A DNA stretch of 64,000 bases, from NCBI GenBank assembly GCA_902826565.1, contig CADEFF010000003.1, positions 42,588-106,587 on the forward strand. The letters are read 5' to 3'. The notes beneath the pieces are model-generated. The model had not been told where the DNA came from. It saw nothing but the letters and a program-made list of their open reading frames with translations, and did not search any database. Source of the stretch: an uncultured Rhodospirillaceae bacterium. GTDB lineage: Bacteria; Pseudomonadota; Alphaproteobacteria; Dongiales; Dongiaceae. Position numbers and translations under genes: made by a program. Numbering within the stretch: position 1 is the first letter of the stretch; each line of letters begins with the position of its first letter. Positions 24,833 through 44,229 of this stretch are shown here, piece after piece.

Positions 24833-25342
24833 TCACTCGGGGGTCCGGGCGGCTGGCTCGGGTCGGGGTTGTTCGCCGGCGACCGCCGGCGCGCCGAGGG
24901 CGGCAAGCCAGCGGCGCGCCCAGTCGAGCGCCCGCGCATCCTGCCCCTCATCGCCGAGCGCGTCGATCAGGAAGAGCTCCGAGACTTCCCGCGCGCCGAG
25001 CTTCAGCAGCAGGGCGCGCCAGCGACGGCCGCCGAAGCCGTAAGTCCGGATGTAGCTGCTGTCGCCGAGCCCGATCACGCCGAAGCGGGTCCCGGTCATG
25101 GAAGGTTGCGCCCGCAGCAGCTCGGCGAAGAGGCGCTGGCCCATCTCCGGAAGGTCGCCGGCGCCGAAGGTGCTGCTGACCATCAGCAGATTGCGCGCGG
25201 CGGCGAATTCCACCATGGCGAGGGTCTCGGTCGAGCGGACGCGAAAGCGCGCTTCGGACGCCAGGGCGTTTGCGACCGCCTCTGCGATCCGCTGCGCCTT
25301 GCCGGTCATGCTGGCAAAGAAAAGATCGATCTCGAGGGCCAC
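24833..25342 (-). CDS. Flavodoxin-like domain protein
   Basis: 169 aa. N-terminal FMN-phosphate loop IDLFFASMTGKAQRIAE and VIGLGDSSY, typical of flavodoxin_1 domains. Confidence 0.7.
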   Translation of the reverse strand: MALEIDLFFASMTGKAQRIAEAVANALASEARFRVRSTETLAMVEFAAARNLLMVSSTFGAGDLPEMGQRLFAELLRAQPSMTGTRFGVIGLGDSSYIRTYGFGGRRWRALLLKLGAREVSELFLIDALGDEGQDARALDWARRWLAALGAPAVAGEQPRPEPAARTPE

Positions 25343-25458
25343 GGCCGTTCACCGCCCCTTTGACTTGCGATTGCCTGGCCCCGACGAAAGATCTGCGGAA
25401 GGAAAGGCGGCCGCGCTCCCTGCGCCGGTCGCTTCACGCCCTGGGTCGCTCAGGCGCT

Positions 25459-25608
25459 CTAGGCTGGAGTCGAGATTCCGCTCGCATTTTTCGAAGCAGC
25501 GGCGACCTGCGAGAGCCGCTCGCGCCTGATCAGGACCGGCGTCTTGTAAGGGCGGCGCCCGGTCGAGGGTGCGAGCGTAAGGTTGCGGGAGGGATCAATC
25601 TCGATCAT
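25459..25608 (-). CDS. RiPP precursor-like peptide P1 (49 aa), variant copy with Ala at -2
   Basis: Own translation: MIEIDPSRNLTLAPSTGRRPYKTPVLIRRERLSQVAA|ASKNASGISTPA. GGAG lies 5 nt upstream of the ATG. It shares the Y-x2-P-x-L-x2-[KR]RERLS block with three neighbours. The track ORF 25459..25653 is a 5'-extended form. Confidence 0.65.
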   Translation of the reverse strand: MIEIDPSRNLTLAPSTGRRPYKTPVLIRRERLSQVAAASKNASGISTPA

Positions 25609-25678
25609 GACAGCTCCAGAGCTGAGGGTCTGCGGAGATGCTTCCGCCGGCACTTGCCTTACTTTGCGGAAACCGGAA

Positions 25679-25855
25679 TCAGATCGGATTCTGTCCGTCG
25701 GCCGAAACGCCGCTCGGGCCCTGCGACGTGGCTGTCACCTGCGAGAGCCTTTCGCGGCGGCTCAGCGTCGGCGCCTTGTAGGCGCGTCGCGTGGAGGCGG
25801 CAGGCCCGTTGCCCTTGTCGGTATCATTGCGCCGGGGTGACGTCTCTTCGCTCAT
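25679..25855 (-). CDS. RiPP precursor-like peptide P2 (58 aa)
   Basis: Not in the track (under 60 aa). Own translation: MSEETSPRRNDTDKGNGPAASTRRAYKAPTLSRRERLSQVTA|TSQGPSGVSADGQNPI. GGGAG lies 6 nt upstream of the ATG. Y(-17), P(-14), L(-12), T(-2) spacing. Confidence 0.75.
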   Translation of the reverse strand: MSEETSPRRNDTDKGNGPAASTRRAYKAPTLSRRERLSQVTATSQGPSGVSADGQNPI

Positions 25856-25923
25856 CGCAAGCTCCCTATCCGCACCGCGCCATCAGGTTCGCGGAGATAT
25901 CCTCTGAAGATTCTGACCTCGGG

Positions 25924-26103
25924 TTATCCCGGCGCGCTGTCGGTCGAAACCCCGCTCGCATTCTTGGAAGAGGCGGTCACCTCGGAAAGTCGTTCGCGCT
26001 TCACCAGGATGGGCGCAGCATATGACCGGCTCTTGCCGCTTAAAACCGGCGCTGCATCGGTGCCGAGCTCGCGCCGGCCGCCGTTCCTGTCATTCCGCAC
26101 CAT
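25924..26103 (-). CDS. RiPP precursor-like peptide P3 (59 aa)
   Basis: Not in the track. Verified codon by codon: MVRNDRNGGRRELGTDAAPVLSGKSRSYAAPILVKRERLSEVTA|SSKNASGVSTDSAPG. A purine-rich GGGGAA lies upstream of the ATG. Same leader spacing as P2. Confidence 0.75.
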   Translation of the reverse strand: MVRNDRNGGRRELGTDAAPVLSGKSRSYAAPILVKRERLSEVTASSKNASGVSTDSAPG

Positions 26104-26139
26104 TGTGGTTCCCCAATCTTCCCGGTTGCCCGGTCGCTC

Positions 26140-26301
26140 TTACGTGATCGCCACGCCGCTGGCAGCCTTCGAATCTTCGGCGGTAATCGCCGAAAGCCGC
26201 TCGCGCTTCGTGATGGACGGTGCCCGATAGGGCCGCCGCGCACCGGTCCTTGCGGATGCTACGCCTGTCTCGGACCGTTCGGAATTCTCCGGCTTTCTCA
26301 T
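26140..26301 (-). CDS. RiPP precursor-like peptide P4 (53 aa)
   Basis: C-terminal part of track ORF 26140..26562. The internal ATG at 26301 is preceded by GAGGGGAA. Sequence: MRKPENSERSETGVASARTGARRPYRAPSITKRERLSAITA|EDSKAASGVAIT. Same leader spacing, with Ile at -12. Confidence 0.7.
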   Translation of the reverse strand: MRKPENSERSETGVASARTGARRPYRAPSITKRERLSAITAEDSKAASGVAIT

Positions 26302-26680
26302 CGATTTCCCCTCGTAGTTCGGACCACCGCGCCATGCGCGACGGCGCCCTGCGCTCGATCTCTTCGGGTCTGGTATCCCCCCGCATCCTGCCCGCCGGAT
26401 TGTCGAAACCGCCACACCGCGCCCAAGCGCGCCGAGCCCGGTTCCGCATCCCGGACGGAGATGAAACCTAACATCCCTGCGAAGGCCATGGCCAGACCGC
26501 ATTTCCCGGTTGGGCCGACGATTCGGCTGGCATCGGGTCGACATTATCGACATGGAATCCAAGGGTTCCGGCGGCGCGGACTATCAATGATTGCCGGGCT
26601 GCGGCAGAGTGGGCCCCTATCGTGCCACGGCCCCCCGAGAGTCCGGCCGAACCTGTTCCCCCACCGTCCGATTGCCTGCC
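26302..26680. promoter_or_regulatory. Divergent intergenic region between the precursor array and the maturation operon (presumed bidirectional promoter region)
   Basis: 379 nt with no convincing ORF, flanked by divergently oriented starts at 26301 (-) and 26681 (+). No specific promoter boxes were identified. Confidence 0.4.
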
Positions 26681-28603
26681 ATGGACCTGGTCACGATCCT
26701 CACGCCGACGCTGCCGGCCCTGGCCTGGGTCGCCGAGCGGCGCCGGGGCAGCCGCGAGGTGCAACTGCGCCATGGGACCGCCGTCGAGCTGGATCCCGAG
26801 GGGGCGATCGCCGGCGCCTGGGCCGGAAGCTTCGCGAAACGGGACATGACCGGCGCCGCCACCTCCATCGGCACGGCGCTGCGAAGGAACGGCGATCGAC
26901 TGCTGGCGCTGGTCGGCACCGCGACCGCCTCCACGATGCAGATTCTCTGGACTCCCAACCGCCTCGTGGTCTCCAACAGCTTTGCCCTAGCCCTCGCCGC
27001 GGGCGATGACCGGCTGGAGCCCGGCTACGCCTTCTATCCCCAAGATCTCTACACCTTCACGCTCGGCGCAAATCGCTATCGACAAACCATCCCGACGCAG
27101 CGCGGCCGGCTCGGAGTCTACTATGCCTCGGTCGAGATCGACGCCAGCGGCGAGCTCCGCATGATGCCGCCGCCCTCGCCGCCCCGCTTCACCGACTATC
27201 GGAGCTATTGCGCGATGCTGGAAGGCGAGATGGCGGCGGTCTTCGCCAATGCCGCCGATCCGGCGCGGCATCGCCACTACCGTCCCGTCGTGAGCATCTC
27301 GGCGGGTTATGATTCGCCCGCAGCCGCCGTGCTGGCGAAACGTAACGGGTGCAGCGATGCCATCACCTTTCCGCAGCCGATCGATCGGCGCGACCGGCCG
27401 GAGGATGACGGCACCGCGATCGCGCGGCAACTCGGCCTCTCCGTCGTCTCGCGCAACACCTTCGACTACCGGCGTCGCGCCGATCAGCCCGAGATCGAAT
27501 TCCTCGCGGCGAGCTTCGGCGGCGGGCAGGTCTACCTCGCCGGCACCGAGGCGCTGCTCTCCGGACGGCTCGTGGTGTCGGGCGGCGGCGGCGACACGCT
27601 CTGGGACATCGCGCTCGGGCAACGCCGCCGGCCACGTTTCCCGATGATGCTCGGCGGCTACAGCGCCATCGATTTTTTTCTCCGGCTTCCGGCGCTGGAG
27701 CTCGCGGTGCCGGCGATCGCGTCGGCGCGATGGGCGGAGATCGCCGCGCTTTCGCGCTCCGGGGCGATGCGGTCCTGGTCCATCGGCGGAACCTACGATC
27801 GACCGATCCCCCGCCGCCTTCTCGAGGAAGCCGGCGTCGCACGAGGCAGCTTCGCCGACCGCAAGCGGCAGGTGACGCCGGTCTATGACAGCATCACGCG
27901 CCGCGCGCCTTCGATCGACAGCTTCCTCTCGCCCGCCACGAGAAAGGTCTTCGCCGACTGGTTCTCCGCCCAGACGCCGCTTCGCGGAGGCGCCGCGCGA
28001 CGACACAAGCTCGCGGTCGACAGCTACGGGCGCATCGTCTGGTCCGGCAAGCTTGCCCGGCTTGCGCGCCGCCTCGGCGGAAGCTGGCCGCCCTTCCCGG
28101 CAAAGGTCTGGCATCTGCGCATGCCGATGCGCGAAAACGCCTTCCTCTTCAACTGGGCTGTCGAGCGCCAGCGCACGCGCTATAAGGACGCGCTCGCGGG
28201 CAAGAATGACGATATGCCGATGCCCGCTCCCGAAGCCGGCCTGAAGGAACCGCCGATGGCCCCGTCCGACGCCGACGATACCGCGCCCTTGCCGACGCAG
28301 TTCGCGCCGGTCGATCGCCGCGCCGTGCTCCGGCTCTCGCCCAAGGTCACGCTGCGGCGTCTCGGCGAGGATCAGGGCGCCGTGGTGCTTCGGCTGGCCG
28401 ACGGGCAGCTCTATACCTGCAACGATACGACCGTCGATTTCCTCGAGGCGGTCGACGGCGAACGCGATCTGGCGGCGATCATCGCGCGGCTCGAATGCGT
28501 CTATGATGCTTCGCCCACGCGGCTGCGGATGGATCTCGTCGCGTTGGCCGAACAGCTTCTGGCCGAAGGCCTGATTCGGATCGAGGATGCAACGGCGCGC
28601 TGA
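26681..28603 (+). CDS. Asparagine-synthetase/PP-loop-like enzyme (lasso-cyclase-like) fused to a C-terminal PqqD-type RiPP recognition element
   Basis: Track ORF 26591..28603, trimmed to the ATG at 26681 (MDLVTIL). Central PP-loop-like motif VVSISAGYDSPAAAVLA (compare SGGxDS). The last ~95 aa (VLRLSPKVTLRRLGEDQGAVVLRLADGQLYTCNDTTVDFLEAVDGERDLAAIIARLECVYDASPTRLRMDLVALAEQLLAEGLI) look like PqqD/B1. No stop codon separates the two parts. Confidence 0.6.
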   Translation: MDLVTILTPTLPALAWVAERRRGSREVQLRHGTAVELDPEGAIAGAWAGSFAKRDMTGAATSIGTALRRNGDRLLALVGTATASTMQILWTPNRLVVSNSFALALAAGDDRLEPGYAFYPQDLYTFTLGANRYRQTIPTQRGRLGVYYASVEIDASGELRMMPPPSPPRFTDYRSYCAMLEGEMAAVFANAADPARHRHYRPVVSISAGYDSPAAAVLAKRNGCSDAITFPQPIDRRDRPEDDGTAIARQLGLSVVSRNTFDYRRRADQPEIEFLAASFGGGQVYLAGTEALLSGRLVVSGGGGDTLWDIALGQRRRPRFPMMLGGYSAIDFFLRLPALELAVPAIASARWAEIAALSRSGAMRSWSIGGTYDRPIPRRLLEEAGVARGSFADRKRQVTPVYDSITRRAPSIDSFLSPATRKVFADWFSAQTPLRGGAARRHKLAVDSYGRIVWSGKLARLARRLGGSWPPFPAKVWHLRMPMRENAFLFNWAVERQRTRYKDALAGKNDDMPMPAPEAGLKEPPMAPSDADDTAPLPTQFAPVDRRAVLRLSPKVTLRRLGEDQGAVVLRLADGQLYTCNDTTVDFLEAVDGERDLAAIIARLECVYDASPTRLRMDLVALAEQLLAEGLIRIEDATAR

Positions 28604-29030
28604 ACGCCTGTCCGATCTCCGCTTCCGTTGCCATCTCTGGCTGGCGGCGCGATGGCTGACGGTACGCGCCAAAGGTCGGCCGATCGAAACCCTGCTGCAG
28701 GCGGCGACGCCCGTCCCCGGCTTCGAACCCTATCGCGGCCTTTCGGCCGAACGCATCGTGGAGGCGGTCCGGCGCACGCTCGCCCGCCCCTGGCGCATGC
28801 GCGGCCGGCGCTGCCTCCGCGAGGGGCTGCTCGCCTTTCGGTTCCTTCGCCTCGCCGGCTATCCGGCCGTGCTGCATTTCGCCGTCGCGTCCCCCTCGCC
28901 GACCGATCGCATGCGCGCCCATTGCTGGGTGACGCTGGAGGGAAGGCTCATTCACGAATCGCCGCGCGAGGGAATGGTGCCGCTCCTCGAGTGGGACGGC
29001 GAGGCGCGACCCGCGACGCAGAATGGCTGA
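28587..29030 (+). CDS. Lasso peptide biosynthesis B2 protein (transglutaminase-like Cys protease, leader peptidase)
   Basis: 147 aa. Family-typical block RCLREGLLAFRFLRLAGYPAVLHFAV...RAHCWVTLEGRLI containing the Cys and His of the catalytic triad. The start overlaps the upstream gene by 17 nt. Confidence 0.8.
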   Translation: MQRRAERLSDLRFRCHLWLAARWLTVRAKGRPIETLLQAATPVPGFEPYRGLSAERIVEAVRRTLARPWRMRGRRCLREGLLAFRFLRLAGYPAVLHFAVASPSPTDRMRAHCWVTLEGRLIHESPREGMVPLLEWDGEARPATQNG

Positions 29031-30018
29031 CCGCCGCATGGCGGCGCGCCACTACGACCTCAACGGCGTCACGCTGGCGGTGGCGGCGGATCGCCCGGAA
29101 GCGGCCGGTTTCCTCGATTTCGTCCTGTCGCCGCTGGCGATCGACCCCACCGAGAAACCCGATTGCCGGATCGCGATCGAGACCCGCGGCACCCTGCCGC
29201 CGGCGGCTCGAGGCCTGCTCCAGTTCGAGGGAGCGCTTCCGGAATCGCTGCCGGCGCAGCTCGTTCGGGACGGCGACCTGAGGACGCTCGACGCGCCCGG
29301 GCATTATCAGGCCGAGAGCCTGCGCGGATCGGATTTCGTGCGCGTTCTCGTCGCGCCGGGAAGCGACCGCTGGCTCACCGGAACGCTGGCGTTCTGGCTG
29401 CTCGACGAGCTGCTGGTCGGGAAAGGCCGCATCTTCCTGCATGCCGCCTGCCTGGCGCGGCCCGCGGGCGATGCGATCCTCATCTTCGCCGCGAGCGGCA
29501 CGGGCAAGACGACGACGGCGCTGGCCCTCGCACGCAACGGCTACGGGTTGATGGGCGACGACGTGGCGCTGCTGGAATTCCGCGATGGCCGACCGTGGGT
29601 CTGGGGGCTGCCGCGCCCGATCAACCTGCATCGCCGAACCGCGGCCATGCTGTCCTGGATCGATCCCATCCTGCGGCCATGGCGCGGCGAGGAACAATCC
29701 GTGCCGTTCGACAAGCTCGCCACCTGCATCGACCGTGCGGCGGCAAAGGCCCGGCCCTGCGGCGCCATGGTCATGCTGCAGCCGCCGAACCCTGAGGGCC
29801 ACCGTGCGGCGCCGATGGCAAGGACGGAGGCGATGGTGCAGGCCGCGGCGGACAACCTCCGCGTCGCGCCGGGCGGGCTCGACGAAGACGGCGAGCTCGC
29901 CTTCGACGCGCTGGCGCGGCTGATCGCGGCGGTGCCCGTGCTGCAGCTCGAAGTCGGACCCGATCCCGATTCCCTGCGGCCCGATATCCTGGAGAGCGCC
30001 GGCGTTACCGCGCGATGA
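29023..30018 (+). CDS. HPr-kinase-related (HprK-like) serine kinase of the lasso-peptide kinase type
   Basis: 331 aa. P-loop plus downstream acidic motif IFAASGTGKTTTALALARNGYGLMGDDVALL, as in the HprK C-terminal domain. The ATG overlaps the B2 stop (ATGGCTGA); an alternative ATG lies at 29038. Confidence 0.7.
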   Translation: MADRRMAARHYDLNGVTLAVAADRPEAAGFLDFVLSPLAIDPTEKPDCRIAIETRGTLPPAARGLLQFEGALPESLPAQLVRDGDLRTLDAPGHYQAESLRGSDFVRVLVAPGSDRWLTGTLAFWLLDELLVGKGRIFLHAACLARPAGDAILIFAASGTGKTTTALALARNGYGLMGDDVALLEFRDGRPWVWGLPRPINLHRRTAAMLSWIDPILRPWRGEEQSVPFDKLATCIDRAAAKARPCGAMVMLQPPNPEGHRAAPMARTEAMVQAAADNLRVAPGGLDEDGELAFDALARLIAAVPVLQLEVGPDPDSLRPDILESAGVTAR

Positions 30019-30982
30019 GCGGGCGTGTGGTGAGGCGGCGATAGAACTGCGCGATCCTTCGCCGCTTGCCGTCGCCCGGCAGCCGGCGCCGGAGCCGCAC
30101 CCGGGCATCCGCAAGATCGAGTTCGATCCGTCGCCAGCCGATCCGGGGCGGCGCGCCAGTCGTGGGTCCGAGCCGCTGCACCAGATCCATGATGCGGTAG
30201 TCGCGTCCGGCGATTCGCATGACGAGTTGCCGCAACTGCCCGACCGTGCCGCAGAGCCAGGCGACCCGATCGGCCGTTTCCGCCGGTGTCAGCCGGAAGG
30301 CTGCCGTCGTCGGACGAGCGAGGGTCGCCGCCGCCTCGTCCTGCGGCACCGCCCCGATCTCGCCGCGCAGATAGCGCGGGACAGCCTGCACGGCGAGGGT
30401 CGCGGCCGCCTCGGCCAGCGACAGCTCCCACCGGCGGACATCGCCACCCGATTCGAGCGGCACCGGGACGGCGGCGATGACCGGCCCCTTGTCCATACCC
30501 GCCGTGATCGCATGGAGCGTGACGCCGCCATAGCGATCGGCCGTGCCATCCAGCAGCATGGCCATCAAGGGATAGGGGCCGCGGAACCGCGGCAGCAGCG
30601 CCGGATGCAGGTTCAGCACCGGCATGGCGAGGCTATCCAGGAACGATCGCGGCAGGAGGCGCGGAAAATGCACGCTGAGGACGAGATCGGGCCGCAGCGC
30701 CGCGGCGCGCGCGGCTGCCTGGTGCCAATCGGCCGCCGCGGACAGGACATGCGGCGCGATGCGACCTCGCCTGATCGCCGCCGAGACGGACCATTGCGGC
30801 GTGCATATCCCCGTATGGCGATCGCGGCGCCAGTCGGACGGACCCGATGCATCGACCGTCCAGAACTCGAGGATTTCGTGGCCCGCCGCAAGCCAGGCAT
30901 GGGCAACGAGCGCGGGCGTCGGCCCGGTCGCGCCGAGGAAGAGAGCGCGATATCGGCGGAAAGGCTGTTTCGCCTCCCTCAC
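30005..30982 (-). CDS. Methionyl-tRNA-formyltransferase-like (Fmt/ArnA-N-type) formyltransferase
   Basis: Track ORF 30005..31486, trimmed to the GTG at 30982, which overlaps the upstream stop as GTGA. The product is 325 aa. Formyl_trans_N motif VLNLHPALLPRFRGPYP plus AGMDKGPVIA. The 3' end overlaps the kinase 3' end by 14 nt (convergent). Confidence 0.7.
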   Translation of the reverse strand: MREAKQPFRRYRALFLGATGPTPALVAHAWLAAGHEILEFWTVDASGPSDWRRDRHTGICTPQWSVSAAIRRGRIAPHVLSAAADWHQAAARAAALRPDLVLSVHFPRLLPRSFLDSLAMPVLNLHPALLPRFRGPYPLMAMLLDGTADRYGGVTLHAITAGMDKGPVIAAVPVPLESGGDVRRWELSLAEAAATLAVQAVPRYLRGEIGAVPQDEAAATLARPTTAAFRLTPAETADRVAWLCGTVGQLRQLVMRIAGRDYRIMDLVQRLGPTTGAPPRIGWRRIELDLADARVRLRRRLPGDGKRRRIAQFYRRLTTRPLIAR

Positions 30983-32073
30983 GAGAGCCGGACCAGCAAT
31001 TCGCGATAGAGCTGCCGGCGCCAGGCGTGGCGCGAGCGCTGCGAATTGTGGGCAGTGAGGATCGGCGACCGTCCGAAAACCCGGGCGAGGCCGCGCGTCC
31101 GCCGATCGCGTACGACGGCGGCCGCGAGCGCGCGCATCGCCGGATCGCCCGTGAGCCTGCCGGCGATGACGAGCGCGCTGCGCAAGGCGAGCCCGCCGCC
31201 GGTTTCCGCCGCCAGCCGTTCGAGCGCGTCGCGATCGATAGGGCCGGCGGCGCCTCGCGCCGCCTGCACCATGTCGAAGATCTGCTGCAGCCGGTCGAAG
31301 CCGTGGCCGGCCGCCGCATGGATCGCCGCGATATAGAGCAGGGCCCCTGCGGTCGGCCTTCCGTCCGCCATGCCGAACCGCTCGAGCTGCGCAAAATCGA
31401 GCGACACCCGGCGGCGCAGCTTCGGCGAGTTTACCAGATCCCAATGCAGCTCGACCGGTGAGGTGCCGAGCACCGGGTGCGCCCATTTCTCCTCGGCATA
31501 GTGCCCTGCATGCCGTCCCGAGGTCTGCGGCACATGGCGGTAGCCGAGCTCGGTCAGCACGGCCCGCGCGGCGGGAAATTCCTCGTCCGGCAGCATGAGG
31601 TCGATGTCGTCGAAGGGCCGGAGCGCCGGATCCGGATAAAGCCGGTCCGCAAAGCTCGAGCCCTTGAGGACCGCCGCCGACACGCCCGTCGCCGCGAGCC
31701 TTTCCAGCAACGCCTGCTGCATCGCGCGAAGCAGCTCCGCCCGCCCGACGAGATGCGCCACGCCGAAATCGAGCCGTTCCAGCATCGCCGCCACGGCGGC
31801 CTCGGGATTGCTTGCCCGCAAGACCGCCGCGAGCCCGCGCTCGGCCGTCACCCGCCGGATGTTGCGTGCGATCGCCGGCGACACACGGTGCCGGTCGCCT
31901 TCGACCGCAAGCCGTTCGAGATCCTCGTCATCGAGCGGTGCCGCCGGCGCGGAACCGTGCGGCGCCGGATCGCCGAGCCAGAGCAGCCAGGCATGGAAGC
32001 GGTCGGGCAAGGGGCAAAAATCCTGCAATCCCAAGACAGCGCCAGCATAGGGGCCGGAAGGCGGATCGGCCAT
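30979..32073 (-). CDS. Nucleotidyltransferase family protein (PF14907/NTP_transf_5-like)
   Basis: 364 aa. VLKGSSFADRLYPDPALRPFDDIDLMLP and VELHWDL match the pol-beta-like nucleotidyltransferase family that frequently accompanies lasso clusters. Confidence 0.7.
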   Translation of the reverse strand: MADPPSGPYAGAVLGLQDFCPLPDRFHAWLLWLGDPAPHGSAPAAPLDDEDLERLAVEGDRHRVSPAIARNIRRVTAERGLAAVLRASNPEAAVAAMLERLDFGVAHLVGRAELLRAMQQALLERLAATGVSAAVLKGSSFADRLYPDPALRPFDDIDLMLPDEEFPAARAVLTELGYRHVPQTSGRHAGHYAEEKWAHPVLGTSPVELHWDLVNSPKLRRRVSLDFAQLERFGMADGRPTAGALLYIAAIHAAAGHGFDRLQQIFDMVQAARGAAGPIDRDALERLAAETGGGLALRSALVIAGRLTGDPAMRALAAAVVRDRRTRGLARVFGRSPILTAHNSQRSRHAWRRQLYRELLVRLS

Positions 32074-32226
32074 TGGCCAGAACCCACCCCTTCAGAATCC
32101 GGTCCCGGGGGCAGGATTGGCTAATCCCCGCGACGCGCCTATGCTCGCGTCGATCCAACGGCATCGCGGCATTCGCGACACAGGGCGAACACTCGGAAAA
32201 TCAGCAAGAGCGAGGGAGGTCAACCA

Positions 32227-32793
32227 ATGGCAATCTCGATTCATCCGGCCGTCGATAACGGCATCAAACCGAAGGCGGAGAATTTCGCCGGCGGCAAGCT
32301 GAGCTGCAACTGCGCGCAAGGCGCGGTCGAAGTCACGGTCACGGGCCAGAGCGCGCACAACCATGTCTGCGGCTGCACAAAATGCTGGAAGCCGAAGGGC
32401 GCGACCTTCTCGCAAGTGGCGGTCGTGCCGCGCGACAACCTCAAGGTCAGCGCGAACGAGAACAAGCTCAAGGTCGTCGACTCGTCCGCAGCGATCCAGC
32501 GTCATGCCTGCAAGGATTGCGGCGTGCATATGTATGGCCGGATCGAGAACAAGAACCACCCGCTCTACGGCTTCGACTTCATCCATACGGAGCTTTCGAA
32601 GCAGAGCGGCTGGTCGCCGCCGGAATTCGCGGCCTTCGTCTCGTCCGTCATCGAGTCCGGCACCAAGCCCGACCAGATGCCGGCGATCCGCAGCCGGCTG
32701 AAGCAGATCGGGCTCGAGCCCTATGACGCGCTCTCGCCGCCGCTGATGGATTTCATCGCGACCCACGTCGCCAAGCAGAAGGGCGTGCTCTAG
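32227..32793 (+). CDS. gfa: S-(hydroxymethyl)glutathione synthase (glutathione-dependent formaldehyde-activating enzyme)
   Basis: 188 aa. Near-colinear with Paracoccus Gfa as I recall it: [11 protein letters not shown]..., [58 protein letters not shown]. Confidence 0.9.
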
Positions 32794-37963: not shown

Positions 37964-38619
37964 ACGGGCGGGCGCCGGCAGGGCCTGAGCGACCGCCGCG
38001 ACGAGCGGCGATCGACACCCGTCAGCCTGGCTCCAGCAGCCTGGTCGGCGCGCCGATAATGTCCGCTTCGCGACAGAGCTTGCCCCAGCGGATGCGATTG
38101 ATCCGGGGGAAACGCAAGGCACACATCAGCATCGCATCGATGAGGTAAGGGATCGCGCTCTATTTGAACCAAATGTTCTTCGGTCGCCGGCGACACAGGG
38201 ACTGTCCTTCCGCTTCAGCAGGATCCCTTCGACACCGGCTTCGCGGTTCCCGAGCCGTAGCCGTGCACGCTCCGCCCAGCTCGCGAAAGGAACGAGCGGA
38301 ACGGCGTACCAAGGGCCGAGTTCCTCGCAGAACCGAAGCCGGCCAGCGCTGAAGATCGTGGAAGTTCAATAGACGCGACTTGGATTGGATCCTGCTCACC
38401 CCTGCACCAAACTGCGCACCGCGGGCGGCGGCCAAGGAGCAGCTAGGCACAATGCCGAGCTTGTCGCTAGTATTGGGTGATCGCGGATGTGCTTCGGCGG
38501 TTCTGCCGCTCGCCCTCGTTTTGCGACCTGCTGGATGTCGAAGAAGACGATTCGGTCGCGATTTGAGCAGCCGAAGTGCATCTTGAAGATCTTCGATGTA
38601 GTTACCTTCGGTCCCCTTC

Positions 38620-39294
38620 TTGCGCCGTACGACGAAATCGCCTGCCAAGCTCGACGTGGGCTCCCCTTCGCGGCGCTCTCCAAAGCGCGGCTTGCGGGAG
38701 CGTAAGCGGCTAGAGCGTCGCCACCAGATTCTGGAAGCGGCCGCAGAGATATTCCATCGTCGCAGCTTCGACGGAACGCGCATCGAGCAGATTGCCGAGG
38801 AGGCCGACGTCTCTGTCGGCACGGTCTATAACTACTTTCCCACCAAGGACGCACTACTGCTCGGTCTTGCTGATCATTATCGCTCACGCACGCCCGAACT
38901 GATCTCGGCTCTGGTCGAAAGCCCACCTTCCGATCCGGTGAAGGCGTTCGTGCAGTTCTATTCGATCATGACGCGGGAGAGCATGCGCTATCTCGACAAG
39001 CCGCTGTGGCGCCATGTTCATGCAGCCACGACCGTCAGCGGATGGAACCAGTATGGCAGCCAACGCTGGCAGCATGAAGAGGGCCTGATCGAGTTCCAAT
39101 GCGCCCTGATCCGCGCTTTACAGCGGCTGGGAAGCGTCTCAAGCACGATTGACATTCGACCGCTCGCCGAGGTGATCCATGCGAGCGCATTCTTCTGGTG
39201 GCAGAGATTCCTCGTGCAGGAACCGATGACTCGGTCCGACTTCATGGCAAAGCTGAAGCGCGACCTGGCATTCATTCTCGGTCGCTCGCGCTAG
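38620..39294 (+). CDS. TetR-family transcriptional regulator
   Basis: HTH block ILEAAAEIFHRRSFDGTRIEQIAEEADVSVGTVYNYFPTKDAL. The start is uncertain: the track uses the TTG at 38620, and in-frame GTG 38656 and TTG 38692 are alternatives. Confidence 0.8.
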   Translation: MRRTTKSPAKLDVGSPSRRSPKRGLRERKRLERRHQILEAAAEIFHRRSFDGTRIEQIAEEADVSVGTVYNYFPTKDALLLGLADHYRSRTPELISALVESPPSDPVKAFVQFYSIMTRESMRYLDKPLWRHVHAATTVSGWNQYGSQRWQHEEGLIEFQCALIRALQRLGSVSSTIDIRPLAEVIHASAFFWWQRFLVQEPMTRSDFMAKLKRDLAFILGRSR

Positions 39295-39314
39295 TTGCGG
39301 CGCGCCGCGTGTTA

Positions 39315-40034
39315 CTAGCCCGAGGTTTCCATTGACCAGCTATGCAGGTCATCGAGCTCGGCGACGTCGAAGTTCGGGGAGAGACAGAAACGCTTCACCT
39401 TCTCCTCGGCTGCCAGCACGCCGGCAGTAATGCGCAGCAACTCTTCCAGGTCGATTTCGGCAGGAATGATGAGCGCGCCATGTTCGTCGGCATGAACGAG
39501 ATCGCCGGGCCGGACGACCAGGCCGCCGACCTTGACCGGGGTGCCCATCTCCACGAATCGCACATTGGCATGGCCGACCGTCGGGCCGCCAGCGAACAGG
39601 CCGAATCCGATCGCACCCATCTCGGGCAGATCTCGAACGCTCCCATTCGTGATGGCGGCAACGCAACCGAGCGCCTTGAAGATCGTCGCCGATACGTCGC
39701 CCCAAGCGCAGCCGCGTCCCGGTGCCTGATCGAGATCCTGCACCACTGCGATGCTGGGTCGCGGCGCGATGGCCACACTTTCCCACACAGCCCGCCATGA
39801 AAGCACCGCCTCGCCCGGCGCCTCGGGCAGTTCGCCCACAATCTTCCCGGTCCAAGCATAGCCGACAAAGACCCCGAGCGACGGCAGCATGCAGCGGACA
39901 GTATGGTCGGTATAGCCCTCGCTCTTCGGCCGCAGGTTGAAGCGCTCTATCGAGTCATAGACGGTCGGCGTCCGATAGGCGCGCAGCCGCCCCAGGACGT
40001 CGCTTCCCTGTCCAGCTGAATGTGCCTTGTTCAT
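39315..40034 (-). CDS. RraA-family protein (4-hydroxy-4-methyl-2-oxoglutarate aldolase/oxaloacetate decarboxylase-like)
   Basis: Track ORF 39315..40064. I prefer the ATG at 40034 (MNKAHSAG). RraA-like core AWGDVSATIFKALGCVAAITNGSVRD and VRPGDLVHADEHGALIIP. Confidence 0.7.
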   Translation of the reverse strand: MNKAHSAGQGSDVLGRLRAYRTPTVYDSIERFNLRPKSEGYTDHTVRCMLPSLGVFVGYAWTGKIVGELPEAPGEAVLSWRAVWESVAIAPRPSIAVVQDLDQAPGRGCAWGDVSATIFKALGCVAAITNGSVRDLPEMGAIGFGLFAGGPTVGHANVRFVEMGTPVKVGGLVVRPGDLVHADEHGALIIPAEIDLEELLRITAGVLAAEEKVKRFCLSPNFDVAELDDLHSWSMETSG

Positions 40035-40078
40035 GAGCTTGACTCGCTTCAGTGGAAACGACAATGGAGGTGCCGCGG

Positions 40079-41188
40079 CTAGATCTTCAGATCCTGAAGA
40101 TGCTGCCGATAGCGGATCTGGAAATCCTGCATGACCTTTTCGCTGCCAAGGAAGATCGGGCCTTCCTCGAAGCGTCCGCCCATGATGTTCCTCGCAACGC
40201 CCTCGCAGACGACGCGATCCTCCCCATAGACGAGCTTGTGATACCAGTCGGCCGCTTCCTCCACCTCGGGCTCGCCGATCGTCGGCGGAGCAAAGAAATC
40301 GGTACGAACCCGGATCCGATTGGCGTTGACGATTTCAAGGATTCGAATGTTCGACACCCGGCCCTGCATGGCTTGGAGCGTCCAGTTGGGCCATACCCCA
40401 CATGCCATCCATGCCGGCATATTGGCGTGATTCTCGCGAGAGTGCGAAATGTGGAATGCGAAGGTGTCGTAGCTCTCGTTAACGTAGTCGTCGGGATCGG
40501 TCTTGTGGGTGGTGCCCATAGTTGGATGGACCAGCCGGCAGTGGTAGCAATCCGCCGTGTTGTCCATGAAGGTCTTCCAGTTGCAGGCCTGTTCCCAGAC
40601 GAGCGTCTTGCGATAGCTCATCTTGGCGATGCCGATCTGATTTTCCTCAGCGATGCGGATGAGTGTCGCGAACTCCTCCTCGAAGGCCGGGCCGTCAAAT
40701 TGGAGATTTGCAAAGCCGAGATCCCCCCAAAGGCCGACTCGAATGGGTAGCAAACCGTAGTTCGCAGGATCGAAGGCGGCCTCCCTCTCGGAGCGAGGCG
40801 CCTTGATCAGCGAACCATCCTGACGATAGGTCCAGCCGTGATAGCGGCACATGAAGACGGTGCAATTGCCCGAGTCTTTAGCGACAGGATGACCGCGATG
40901 CCGGCACATATTGACGAAGCCACGCAGCGTGCCGTCCTTGTCGCGGATGACGACGATCGGCACTTCGGCGACCGTCGCGGTCAGGTAGTCGCCTGGATTG
41001 ACGAGGCCGTTGACCGGACCGATCGGCTGCCATCGACGCGCCATGACGTATTTCTGCTCGAAACGAGAAATTTCCTCATCCCCGTACCAATAACCAGGGA
41101 ACGACACCTTCCTTTCGATGGCAGAGTCGATCTCCGCCAGCATTTGCACCCGAAGCGCGCGGTCATCATGCATGAGAGCCTCCAGCAT
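40079..41188 (-). CDS. Rieske [2Fe-2S] ring-hydroxylating oxygenase, alpha subunit (alpha-only type)
   Basis: 369 aa. Rieske motif CRHRGHPV..(15)..CRYHGWTY. The catalytic domain has NTADCYHCRLVH. Confidence 0.85.
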   Translation of the reverse strand: MLEALMHDDRALRVQMLAEIDSAIERKVSFPGYWYGDEEISRFEQKYVMARRWQPIGPVNGLVNPGDYLTATVAEVPIVVIRDKDGTLRGFVNMCRHRGHPVAKDSGNCTVFMCRYHGWTYRQDGSLIKAPRSEREAAFDPANYGLLPIRVGLWGDLGFANLQFDGPAFEEEFATLIRIAEENQIGIAKMSYRKTLVWEQACNWKTFMDNTADCYHCRLVHPTMGTTHKTDPDDYVNESYDTFAFHISHSRENHANMPAWMACGVWPNWTLQAMQGRVSNIRILEIVNANRIRVRTDFFAPPTIGEPEVEEAADWYHKLVYGEDRVVCEGVARNIMGGRFEEGPIFLGSEKVMQDFQIRYRQHLQDLKI

Positions 41189-41617
41189 TCAGAGCTCCGG
41201 TTCGGTTACCGTCTGCCTCACCAAGATACACTATGGCCTTCGAGCCCGCGGTTACCGTCATCCGATCTATCGGCATTCCGTCTGCCCTCGCCGCGGATCG
41301 CTGTCCGCTCGGTAAGGGAGACGAGTGTCGGTCAAAGTCGAGGGCAACAGATAGTCTCATTGGCGTGAACGGCAGTCCGGTATGCCTTTCTGCGGCCGAC
41401 CGCGGAATCTCAGATATCCGCGACAACCAAAATATTGTGCTAGACTATAATATTGAGTTTTGTTCAATAAAAGCGGTAAAACCGATCGACCTATGCGGAT
41501 CGCATGCGGCTGCTAGAACTCTCTGCATCGCGTTCTCAACTACCGAGACGTCAGGGGCTCATAGGCGGCCGAACGAAGTATAGGCAATCAGCGATCGGGG
41601 AAATCTGGGAGGTAACA

Positions 41618-42616
41618 ATGAAAAAGCTTCTATTTGCATTACTGGCTGTCGGCGTCGCGTTAGCGGCGAGACCGGCCTGGTCGGCGGATAAGGTGACCTT
41701 TGCGCTCAACTGGAACGTGCCTTATTCCGGCTGGGCCGGCTTCTACGTCGCTCAGGACAAGGGATACTTTGCGGCCGAGGGTCTTGACGTGGAGTTCCTC
41801 TTGGTGAAGGGGTCAAATCCTGCTAATCAGGCCATCGCCGCCGGCAACGCGCAGCTCGGCGTATCAACTGCGAGTTCGGTGATGGTGGCAGCGAGTCAAG
41901 GTCTGCCCCTCGTCGCAGTCTCGGCCTATATGCAGTCCAATCCAGAAGGCGTGATCGCCCGCAAGGATCGCGGCATCGAGAACATCACTGACTTCGCCGG
42001 CAAGAAGGTCGGCTACAACGTCTCGAACCCGACGGTCTACCTGTTCGAGGCAAAGCTGAAGCGCGCCGGCGTCAATAAGGACGACATTACTTGGGTGACG
42101 GTGCAACCTGAAGCGATGGTGCCGTTACTCCTTTCCGGCGAGATCGACGCCGCGATGGGATACTGGGATTGGGAAGCGATCAACGTCGAGCAGCAGGGCC
42201 TGGGCACCAACGTGTTCGTGATGAGCGACGACAAGGTGCAGATCTATGGCGGCATCGTCTCGGCGAATGCCGATTGGGCAAAGGATCATGGCGACGTAAT
42301 TCGCCGCTTCCTGCGCGCTTCGGTGAAGGGCTGGATCGATGCGGCGGCAGATCTCGACGCTACCTTGGCCGTCATGATGAAGGCCAATCCCGAGGAGGAC
42401 GAGGCCTTCATGCGCCAGGCGCTCGCGATCTCCACCAAGCTCATCGGGAGTTCCGATGCCGACACGCATGGGTTCGGATGGATGGACAAGGCCGATTGGC
42501 AGGGCCTCCAGGAAGCCCTCCTGCAGGGCAAGGTGATCGAGAAGGAAGTCGACCTGGACACACTTTTCACCAACGACTACATGCCCGATAACGCCACGGA
42601 CTGGAAATCTCAGTGA
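41618..42616 (+). CDS. ABC transporter substrate-binding protein (NMT1/THI5-like, NitT/TauT family)
   Basis: Track ORF 41504..42616, trimmed to the ATG at 41618, preceded by GGGAGG. Sec signal MKKLLFALLAVGVALAARPAWSA, followed by KVTFALNWNVPYSGWAGFYVAQDKGYF. Confidence 0.85.
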   Translation: MKKLLFALLAVGVALAARPAWSADKVTFALNWNVPYSGWAGFYVAQDKGYFAAEGLDVEFLLVKGSNPANQAIAAGNAQLGVSTASSVMVAASQGLPLVAVSAYMQSNPEGVIARKDRGIENITDFAGKKVGYNVSNPTVYLFEAKLKRAGVNKDDITWVTVQPEAMVPLLLSGEIDAAMGYWDWEAINVEQQGLGTNVFVMSDDKVQIYGGIVSANADWAKDHGDVIRRFLRASVKGWIDAAADLDATLAVMMKANPEEDEAFMRQALAISTKLIGSSDADTHGFGWMDKADWQGLQEALLQGKVIEKEVDLDTLFTNDYMPDNATDWKSQ

Positions 42617-42631
42617 ACAGCCGACCTTTTC

Positions 42632-43444
42632 ATGGCAGAGCGTGACAACGGCAGCGGCAGCGAAGGGAGGCCCCTGGTTTCCCTTCGCAACGTTGCCAAG
42701 ACTTACGAAGTCGATGGCGGCTCAACCGTGGCCGCGCTCCAGAGCGTCTCGATCGATATTGCGGACAAGCAGTTCGTCAGTCTGATCGGCCCCAGCGGTT
42801 GCGGCAAATCGACGATCATGTCGATAGTCGCCGGATTGCTCGAACCTAGCACCGGCGAGGTGCTGATCGACGGCCATCCTCCGGCACGAGCGCGCGAGGC
42901 ACACGAGCTCGGGATCGTATTCCAGCAGCCGGTTCTGCTGCCCTGGCGGACGATTAGGGCGAACTGCCGCCTCCTGCTCGAGGTGGCGGGCCTTCGGAGC
43001 GCCGAAACCGAGACGCGAATCCAAGAGCTGCTCGAACTTGTCGGGCTCCAGGATTTCGCCGACCTGCATCCGAACCAGCTTTCGGGCGGCATGCGCCAGC
43101 GCGCCGCAATTGCACGGGCACTTTGCCTCGATCCGCTGCTTCTGCTGATGGACGAACCCTTCGCGGCGCTCGACGAGTTCACCCGGCTGCAACTCAACAA
43201 GGAGCTATTGCGCGTCTGGGCGCAGCGCCGCAAGACGATCATCTTCGTGACGCACAACATTGCCGAGGCGGTGTTCCTCTCCGACCGTGTTATTGCGATG
43301 AGCCCTCGCCCTGGTTGCGTGATTGAGGATTTGGCGATTCCGCTACCTCGCCCGCGGCATCCAGATGTGCGTTACACCAAGGACTATACCGACTGCGTCG
43401 TGCATCTCCAGCGGCTGCTGGAGAGCGCGATTCCGGTGGGTTGA
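42632..43444 (+). CDS. ABC transporter ATP-binding protein (NitT/TauT family)
   Basis: Walker A GPSGCGKST, signature LSGGMRQRAAIARAL, Walker B LLMDEP. Confidence 0.9.
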   Translation: MAERDNGSGSEGRPLVSLRNVAKTYEVDGGSTVAALQSVSIDIADKQFVSLIGPSGCGKSTIMSIVAGLLEPSTGEVLIDGHPPARAREAHELGIVFQQPVLLPWRTIRANCRLLLEVAGLRSAETETRIQELLELVGLQDFADLHPNQLSGGMRQRAAIARALCLDPLLLLMDEPFAALDEFTRLQLNKELLRVWAQRRKTIIFVTHNIAEAVFLSDRVIAMSPRPGCVIEDLAIPLPRPRHPDVRYTKDYTDCVVHLQRLLESAIPVG

Positions 43445-44229
43445 GGGATGCTTCTATGGTGTTGAAAAGCACAATCGTAAGGTGGCGTATCCTTGGAGCG
43501 GCCCTTCTGCTGGTGATGCTCCTTGTGAGCTGGCAAGCAGGCGTGGTGCTTTTCGATGTGCCGGGCTACCTGCTGCCGAGCCCTCTTGAGATTGCGCAAG
43601 CACTTTGGAACAACCACACCACCTTCGCCGAGCATACCCTCGTCACGCTCGGCGAGGTGCTGATCGGCTTGGGAGTGGGCATCCTGCTTGGGCTCGCGCT
43701 CGCGGTTCTCATGAGCTGGTCACCTTTGCTTAACAATGCGCTTTATGCGCCTGTTCTCGCGACGCAGACCACGCCAATCGTCGCTATCGCGCCGATTCTC
43801 ATTATCTGGTTCGGGGTAGGGCTCACGCCGAAGGTAATCATCATTGCCATCTTTTCCTTCTTTCCGGTGCTGGTGAATACCCTCTCCGGCCTGCAGGCGA
43901 CCAGCCGACAGATGGTGCAGCTCATGAAGTCGGTCGCGGCGAGCGACTGGCAGATCTATCGCTATGTCCGCATTCCCATGGCGCTACCGCATGTCTTCGC
44001 CGGGCTTCGGCTCGCGGCGGCAGCGGCAGTGGTGGGCGCGATCGTGGTGGAATGGGTTTCCTCGACCGCGGGCCTCGGCTATCTCCTGATCCTTTACCAA
44101 TCACGTCTCAACATAGACGAGGCGTTCGCAACGTTGGTGATCCTTATGCTACTCGGCGTCACGGTCTTCGCGCTCTTCGCTTGGCTCGAGCGCCGCTTCT
44201 CCTGGCAGAAACGCCTCGGGATCGAATAG
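43441..44229 (+). CDS. ABC transporter permease (NitT/TauT family)
   Basis: 262 aa, polytopic. The TTG start at 43441 overlaps the ATPase stop (TTGA); an alternative ATG lies at 43456. Confidence 0.8.
   Translation: MRDASMVLKSTIVRWRILGAALLLVMLLVSWQAGVVLFDVPGYLLPSPLEIAQALWNNHTTFAEHTLVTLGEVLIGLGVGILLGLALAVLMSWSPLLNNALYAPVLATQTTPIVAIAPILIIWFGVGLTPKVIIIAIFSFFPVLVNTLSGLQATSRQMVQLMKSVAASDWQIYRYVRIPMALPHVFAGLRLAAAAAVVGAIVVEWVSSTAGLGYLLILYQSRLNIDEAFATLVILMLLGVTVFALFAWLERRFSWQKRLGIE

Follow-up and report, generated by a model that had tools for sequence, protein, structure and literature searches.

The formyltransferases closest to the one described here act on amines that are carried on nucleotides: the acceptor of Fmt is methionine on A76 of tRNA, and that of ArnA is 4-amino-4-deoxy-L-arabinose (Ara4N) on uridine diphosphate (UDP). 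N-formylation is also known in nonribosomal peptide synthetase (NRPS) systems, for example in linear gramicidin, and to our knowledge no post-translational N-formylation by a dedicated formyltransferase has been described for peptides that are made on the ribosome and then modified (RiPPs). Lasso cyclases belong to the AsnB/beta-lactam-synthetase superfamily. In lasso precursors a Ser is phosphorylated by HPr-kinase homologues; the phospho-Ser of pseudomycoidin then receives one or two hexoses through PsmN, an enzyme of the PF14907 type that may instead nucleotidylate the phosphate (PMC8498205, PMC9266682). We report here on a gene for an Fmt/ArnA-like formyltransferase in a 64,000-nucleotide stretch (the window) of contig CADEFF010000003.1 from an uncultured Rhodospirillaceae bacterium. 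This gene very likely belongs to a lasso-derived RiPP pathway. As to its reaction, we tentatively propose, at somewhat under an even chance, that the protein is a dedicated tailoring enzyme that would N-formylate the alpha-amine freed by the leader peptidase B2.

The locus shares with the paeninodin and pseudomycoidin clusters of Firmicutes the split B1/B2 proteins, an HPr-kinase homologue, a PF14907-type enzyme and a lasso-type leader with Thr at position -2. It differs from them in having a formyltransferase and in lacking the canonical PF00733 cyclase; the AsnB-fold protein of the window is very divergent, and many related clusters have none. The cores are 7-16 residues long without Asp or Glu at positions 7-9. 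The acceptor Ser is C-terminal in paeninodin and pseudomycoidin and the conserved Ser is internal here, so that on this point the peptides fall outside that class.

Gene calling based on G+C at third codon positions, together with lists of open reading frames (ORFs), placed two co-directional minus-strand genes in positions 30005..32073. The ORF of the nucleotidyltransferase-fold protein ends in ...CTC TCG TGA, with the TGA at 30981..30979, and a GTG at 30982..30980 starts the formyltransferase frame (V-REAKQPFRRYRALFLGATGP...), which ends at 30005. As no other in-frame ATG, GTG or TTG stands ahead of the conserved N-terminal beta-strand RALFLGATG, the GTGA is a true stop/start overlap of 4 nt, as a preliminary description of the two genes had claimed. 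Overlaps of 4 nt are by themselves common in operons. Among related loci (designated by L numbers), the same GTGA was found in L086, which is of the window's lineage, and in L082; the overlap is ATGA in L093, and a gap of 7 nt separates the genes in L002. Overlap with the PF14907 gene was thus seen in two independent lineages beyond the window's own. Elsewhere the two genes are separated, and the formyltransferase gene does not lie beside PF14907 in L081, L096-98, L109, L110 or L111. On its other side, the formyltransferase ORF converges with that of the kinase, and their 3' ends share 14 nt (30005..30018) in the window and likewise in L086; in L081 and L082 these genes are about 15 nt apart. 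A scan of 25300..32400 for sigma-70 promoters and terminators gave nothing above shuffled expectation.

The window formyltransferase matched PF00551 with 69.4 bits (gathering threshold 26.1) over profile positions 71-180 only, and a profile built from the family itself covered positions 21-247 against ArnA. The catalytic motif earlier written as NLHP.LLPR.RG is present as NLHPALLPRFRG, that is, N124-L-H126-P-A-L-L-P-R-F-R-G, which holds the HxxLLPxxRG folate-site motif. The Asn-His-Asp triad of formyltransferases (N124, H126, D164) is intact, and was invariant in all 26 aligned family members. PF02911 gave no sequence match in this protein, and its 325 residues contain no second enzyme domain and no fused UDP-glucuronic acid decarboxylase. 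In the AlphaFold2 model (predicted local distance difference test, pLDDT, 94.3), Foldseek found both full-length Fmt (5uai, 1fmt) and the ArnA formyltransferase domain to align over some 300 columns, at a template modelling (TM) score of about 0.71; the best match was Fmt (E 9e-17, TM 0.71-0.74). The predicted structure is the two-domain architecture of Fmt and ArnA, with a catalytic N-terminal domain and a C-terminal beta-barrel. The earlier Fmt/ArnA-type assignment therefore stands on PF00551, the triad and the predicted fold. Family members share a motif in the last third, LGPxTGxPPRxG...D-x-ADARVRLRR (also written LGPPTGxPPRxG), and throughout the family the net charge of the C-terminal domain, between +4 and +18, is strongly basic.

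The preliminary description was to be refuted if the closest relatives were genuine housekeeping fmt, and they are not. The window protein scored 83.5 bits against TIGR00460 (housekeeping fmt; cutoff 201.5) and 61 bits against NF005998 (ArnA; cutoff 777), and was also far under the cutoffs of curated PurN and the remaining equivalogs. A word-indexed search of 5.8 billion proteins returned 56 relatives at E<=1e-26, followed by a gap to generic PurN/Fmt at E>=1e-13, which puts more than 13 orders of magnitude in E-value between the family and generic Fmt. A profile search of 1.84 billion representatives at 50% identity found about 330 family members at E<=1e-30; the best 150 of these matches, all at E<=1e-49, were mostly end-to-end over the profile. 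To judge from these searches, the family is rare, real and distinct from housekeeping fmt. When contigs were scanned with the full-length family alignment keyed on the generic N[LVF]HPALLP, nearly all hits were ordinary fmt/purN loci, and family members were recovered only in L001 and L002. For pattern design from the C-terminal domain, an alignment of 18 sequences was too diverse and a subset of 10 was used.

Compared with Fmt itself (1fmt/2fmt, 5uai), the window enzyme shares the architecture of a Rossmann-type domain and a C-terminal beta-barrel, the triad, the HxxLLPxxRG motif, the basic C-terminal domain and, presumably, an alpha-amine as acceptor. It differs in its low identity to Fmt (19-24%), the missing PF02911 match, its own D-x-ADARVRLRR motif and its setting in a RiPP cluster; the acceptor is Met-tRNA for Fmt and presumably a leader-cleaved peptide here. 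That the gene is a diverged paralogue from housekeeping or folate metabolism (fmt, or a purN/purU-like hydrolase) which merely adjoins the cluster would agree with the occurrence of some family members outside such clusters, and with the presence of the same triad in formyl-tetrahydrofolate hydrolases (the FDH hydrolase domain reached TM 0.70 in Foldseek). We consider this highly improbable, given the scores far under all equivalog cutoffs, the distinct family with its own C-terminal motif, and a synteny kept at 31-60% identity amid many unrelated flanks with the overlap conserved. Housekeeping fmt as such was rejected on score, distinct clade and synteny.

Genes for a PqqD (B1) protein, B2, an HprK-like kinase, a PF14907 protein and the formyltransferase occur together in the window and in L086, L081, L082, L002, L091-L098, L109, L110 and L111, with formyltransferase identity falling as low as 33% and kinase identity as low as 30%. 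The synteny holds in more than 12 independent loci at 31-60% identity (see also Table 1), and in L093 it extends to the AsnB-fold fusion. Most of these loci were reached from formyltransferase homologues. For loci L107-L111 the starting point was the kinase or the AsnB-fold protein, so that they carry no bias towards the formyltransferase; from this side the gene was found in L109, L110 and L111 (kinase identity 30-41%). L108, truncated where its contig stops, is uninformative. The formyltransferase as a recurring part of a lasso-derived cluster is thus borne out across deep divergence.

Other family members lie elsewhere. No cluster genes were found within 10 kb of those in L084/85 (Oricola), L088 (two copies) and L090 (Mesorhizobium). 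L087 (within 10 kb on either side) and L099 (a 6.8-kb contig) also had no cluster genes, yet a precursor ORF stands directly upstream of the formyltransferase gene in both. In a neighbor-joining tree, which carries no support values, cluster contexts occurred to either side of the family's deepest split, and the context-free members fell in one internal clade; because of this placement, the association of formyltransferase and cluster looks ancestral. The two paralogous copies in L088 (2753-3700 and 10001-10948) are separated by 6 kb and have no RiPP genes in their vicinity, and the L090 gene adjoins genes for GT25, a pyruvyl transferase and a Mur ligase. Members of the clade formed by L084 (Oricola), L088 and L090 (Mesorhizobium) may act on another substrate.

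Table 1. Features of the window around the formyltransferase gene, and formyltransferases of related loci
Feature	Positions	Strand	Sequence or identity	Basis
Fmt/ArnA-like formyltransferase, 325 aa, GTG start	30005..30982	-		PF00551 Formyl_trans_N
PF14907 (NTP_transf_5) nucleotidyltransferase-fold protein, 364 aa, upstream of the formyltransferase gene	30979..32073	-		PF14907, 111 bits
Stop/start overlap of nucleotidyltransferase and formyltransferase	30979..30982	-	GTGA	Sequence read
Precursor 1	25459..25653	-	...RRPYKTPVLIRRERLSQVAA; core ASKNASGISTPA	ORF list; precursor hidden Markov model (HMM) E=8e-21, not an independent score, precursor 1 being among the four peptides from which the HMM was built
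Precursor 2	25679..25855	-	...RRAYKAPTLSRRERLSQVTA; core TSQGPSGVSADGQNPI	ORF list, precursor HMM
Precursor 3	25924..26103	-	...SRSYAAPILVKRERLSEVTA; core SSKNASGVSTDSAPG	ORF list, precursor HMM
Precursor 4 (ATG start, MRKPEN...)	26140..26301	-	...RRPYRAPSITKRERLSAITA; core EDSKAASGVAIT	ORF list, precursor HMM
Fusion of a predicted divergent AsnB/beta-lactam-synthetase fold with a C-terminal PqqD/B1 domain, 640 aa	26681..28603	+		PqqD PF05402; AlphaFold2/Foldseek
Lasso-type leader peptidase B2 (transglutaminase-like)	28587..29030	+		PF13471, 51 bits
HPr-kinase-related P-loop kinase, 331 aa	29023..30018	+	ASGTGKTT...GDD	Weak TIGR04352 HprK_rel_A and PF07475 matches
Formyltransferase of L086			97% identity to window
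Formyltransferase of L093			59% identity to window	Full synteny including AsnB-fold fusion
Formyltransferase of L081			50% identity to window
Formyltransferase of L082			46% identity to window
Formyltransferases of L091, L092, L094, L095			38-51% identity to window
Formyltransferases of L096-98			45% identity to window
Formyltransferase of L002 (Mesorhizobium sp. CA8)			35% identity to window

The precursors bear on which amine would be formylated. Four tandem precursor genes lie on the minus strand (25459..26301), opposite to the operon of the AsnB-fold/B1 fusion, B2 and kinase. Their leaders share Y-x-x-P-x-L-x-K/R-R-E-R-L-S-x-V/I-T/A-A, and the consensus over the window and related loci is Y-x-x-P-x-L-x-K/R-x-x-L-S/T-x-V/I-T-A; the lasso-type YxxPxL and penultimate Thr were found in the four window precursors and in more than 30 precursors of related loci. 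The last residue of the cores is Ala, Ile, Gly or Thr, not Ser. In all four window cores the Ser stands within (A/P)-S-G-(V/I), and more than 30 precursors of other loci have this motif again in the form hydrophobic-Ser-Gly/Ala/Asn, so we infer that this internal Ser is the target of the kinase and the PF14907 enzyme. No window core has the Asp or Glu at position 7, 8 or 9 that is usual for lasso peptides: core 1 has no acidic residue, cores 2 and 3 have Asp11, and core 4 has Glu1 and Asp2. The cores of other loci are similar. Lys occurs in three of the four window cores and is missing from several cores, among them QIASGPTAG, GNGVSAPPV, LASGPIG and window core 2.

In L087, L091, L095-98, L099 and L111 the formyltransferase gene has a precursor ORF directly upstream. 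In some of these precursors the short core is followed by a C-terminal extension of about 60-90 residues that starts CW(I/V)ARAAFGE(S/T)DIRW(M/I)IFRAWL (L087:9565-9936, L095:1244-1615, L096:627-1076, and also L097 and L098). The extension has no Pfam match, and every precursor that carries it is immediately upstream of a formyltransferase gene.

The preliminary description had offered two targets for the enzyme, the amine exposed by B2 cleavage and, in the manner of ArnA, an amino-sugar nucleotide. The minimal clusters L002 and L098 contain only precursors, PqqD, B2, kinase, PF14907 and formyltransferase, and their flanks are housekeeping genes (phosphotransferase system/Dak, acetyl-CoA synthetase, ATP-binding cassette transporters, an outer membrane protein); the gene table of L110 agrees with this pattern. 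No amino-sugar pathway genes were found in L002, L098 or L110, and none are conserved across clusters. The alpha-amine is the favoured target: it is the sole amine of many cores, and the minimal clusters lack amino-sugar genes. Most clusters keep B2 without any cyclase, so the freed alpha-amine is presumably used; and since several cores have no other amine and the formyltransferase is intact, N-formylation of residue 1 would be the simplest role.

Chief among the rival targets is an amine of whatever moiety the core Ser receives from the kinase and the PF14907 enzyme, for example that of an amino sugar, formylated either as the nucleoside diphosphate sugar or after attachment. Such a role would suit the conserved stop/start coupling with the PF14907 gene, and a gene for an epimerase/dehydratase of the short-chain dehydrogenase/reductase (SDR) type lies near the window precursors. 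PsmN, a homologous nucleotidyltransferase, adds hexoses to the phospho-Ser of pseudomycoidin (PMC8498205, PMC9266682). The formyltransferase domain of ArnA (1yrw, 2bln, 8gjh) shares fold and motif with the window enzyme and was its best solved-structure match by profile (1.2e-33, nearly tied with Fmt at 3.8e-30), and a nucleotide-borne acceptor amine would fit the nucleotidyltransferase coupling. That score gap is marginal, however, and Foldseek put Fmt first. The window enzyme, unlike ArnA, has no decarboxylase domain. Neither an arnB-like aminotransferase nor any further amino-sugar gene occurs in the conserved clusters; of the enzymes for making amino sugars, neither an aminotransferase nor a dehydratase is conserved with them, and L002, L098 and L110 have unrelated housekeeping genes on their flanks. 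The formyltransferase gene also lies apart from PF14907 in the loci named above and comes right after a precursor gene in L096-98 and L111. On balance we regard formylation of a Ser-linked group as unlikely, and the earlier ArnA-like hypothesis is weakened.

A third target is suggested by clusters with additional genes. L081, L082, L109 and L111 pair the formyltransferase with an AMP-binding (adenylating) enzyme, a PP-binding carrier protein of about 75 residues and a PF13302 GNAT. These extra genes suggest that an amine of the same peptides receives an acyl or aminoacyl group in a second transfer. The formyltransferase could in such clusters act on an activated, carrier-bound amino acid, or else on a Lys side chain such as that present in most of the window cores, and not on the peptide N-terminus. 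The F domain of the linear gramicidin synthetase LgrA is a detectable relative (1e-19); it shares PF00551 and is the known case of N-formylation at residue 1 of a natural peptide product. LgrA F differs in that it is part of an NRPS and takes Val-S-carrier protein as its substrate ahead of chain elongation, whereas the window enzyme is stand-alone, belongs to a ribosomal-peptide pathway and keeps an Fmt-like C-terminal domain. As the window, L093, L002, L098 and L110 keep the formyltransferase without the adenylation, carrier and GNAT set, and several cores have no Lys, we judge this alternative quite improbable. In L111 (6605-8044 and 1156-2991), a metagenome-assembled genome of Xanthobacteraceae, B2 and the HprK-like kinase are fused in one protein of 479 aa; a 41-residue precursor, the formyltransferase-like gene and the GNAT form a separate co-directional unit, and an NRPS gene adjoins the cluster.

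Several observations weigh against N-formylation of residue 1 by an enzyme dedicated to these clusters. The preliminary description had named absence of the gene from otherwise syntenic clusters as damaging; it was present in three of the four informative clusters reached from the kinase or AsnB-fold side, and L107, which is fully syntenic (AsnB-fold protein, PqqD, B2, kinase, PF14907 and five precursors), lacks it. There, a gene for a TauD-family iron/2-oxoglutarate dioxygenase overlaps the PF14907 gene by 4 nt instead (L107:11014-13148). An internal clade of the family (Oricola P0049 and P0034, Mesorhizobium P0035) stands outside the clusters. By profile ArnA ranks marginally above Fmt, so that a nucleotide-linked amine fits the fold equally. 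Gln is the first residue in several cores and could give pyroglutamate. Finally, the GNAT with its adenylating and carrier proteins, or the AsnB-fold enzyme, could compete for the same amine. The AsnB-fold protein is present in the window, L086, L093, L107 and L111; a cyclase-like gene of this fold is absent in L002, L098 and L110, and none was called in L081, L082 or L109. The earlier suggestion that formylation of the amine exposed by B2 would exclude macrolactam closure is accordingly complicated, because the window has the AsnB-fold/B1 fusion and the formyltransferase occurs both with and without such a protein; the amine itself is still the favoured target.

For alpha-amine formylation, the donor, the acceptor, the order of the steps and the role of the C-terminal domain are what we infer. 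The PqqD/B1 domain would bind precursors with the lasso-type leader. The HPr-kinase-like and PF14907 enzymes would then modify the conserved core Ser, by phosphorylation and addition of a group to the phosphate, as for paeninodin and pseudomycoidin. B2 would cut the leader off after Thr-Ala, and the Fmt-like enzyme, with N10-formyl-tetrahydrofolate and Asn124, His126 and Asp164, would formylate the new alpha-amine of the short core. Its basic C-terminal domain probably reads an anionic (phospho- or nucleotidyl-) handle on the peptide, as Fmt and ArnA do with amines carried on nucleotides. Recognition of a phosphate or nucleotide handle is speculative; it is suggested because the substrates of Fmt and ArnA are nucleotide-borne, the C-terminal domain is basic and the gene is coupled to that of the PF14907 protein.

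A bolder reading, which we hold to be doubtful, is that these loci define a new, cyclase-independent RiPP class of lasso descent, in which B1 and B2 would release a linear peptide of 7-16 residues, its Ser would be phosphorylated and then nucleotidylated or phospho-glycosylated, and its N-terminus would be formylated by way of the handle. The product would be an N-formyl peptidyl-phospho-nucleotide, formally like microcin C. No ribosomal natural product would before this have been N-formylated after translation by a formyltransferase.

Three plus-strand genes, for the B1 fusion, B2 and the kinase, converge on the formyltransferase gene (Table 1), and the window thus encodes both a B1 protein (a PqqD-like RiPP recognition element) and a B2 protein (PF13471), as lasso clusters do. 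The N-terminal 540 or so residues of the fusion gave no Pfam or PDB sequence match, PF00733 included. Its AlphaFold2 model (pLDDT 87.5) is confident to about residue 510 and has a disordered linker at 513-533. Foldseek matched the N-terminal part to beta-lactam synthetase (1mbz, 4.9e-11), carbapenam synthetase, TsnB9 and asparagine synthetase B, and the C-terminus to the lasso B1 structures 6jx3 and 5v1v. The AsnB-fold part has a PP-loop-like SISAGYDS, no N-terminal Cys and about 63 homologues, none of them annotated. From the model, this protein would be a very divergent lasso-cyclase-like enzyme, though the cores lack the usual Asp/Glu acceptor.

Homologues of the kinase gave faint matches to PF27840 (ScmC), which we take to be the uncharacterised protein of Haft's 'SynChlorMet cassette'. 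Literature searches returned only unrelated acronyms for 'ScmC' and only an unrelated mention for PF14907. Farther along the window, positions 38000..44000 have a G+C content of 0.58-0.62, compared with about 0.68 elsewhere, and carry genes for an RraA-like aldolase, the alpha subunit of a Rieske ring-hydroxylating oxygenase and an NMT1/THI5-like binding protein; this region may be an acquired catabolic island.

In full-text literature searches, no paper connected lasso peptides, PqqD or RiPP leaders with a formyltransferase, and the word 'formyl' is absent from a 2022 review of unusual lasso modifications and from a 2026 review of mechanically interlocked peptides, including lasso peptides. 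This agrees with the earlier remark that formyltransferases are not known in lasso pathways. The loci therefore point to a RiPP family that descends from lasso machinery and has an Fmt-like tailoring enzyme dedicated to it, and N-formylation is apparently undescribed for RiPPs. The C-terminal D-x-ADARVRLRR motif together with the precursor leader offers a handle for genome mining.

If the proposed reaction is correct, RiPP biosynthesis would gain both a tailoring reaction and an enzyme family that are new to it. The reaction would also show how the lasso B1/B2 machinery is used when the cyclase is missing or unrecognisable, and would explain a recurrent, unannotated five-gene cassette of the Hyphomicrobiales, including Mesorhizobium and Xanthobacteraceae.

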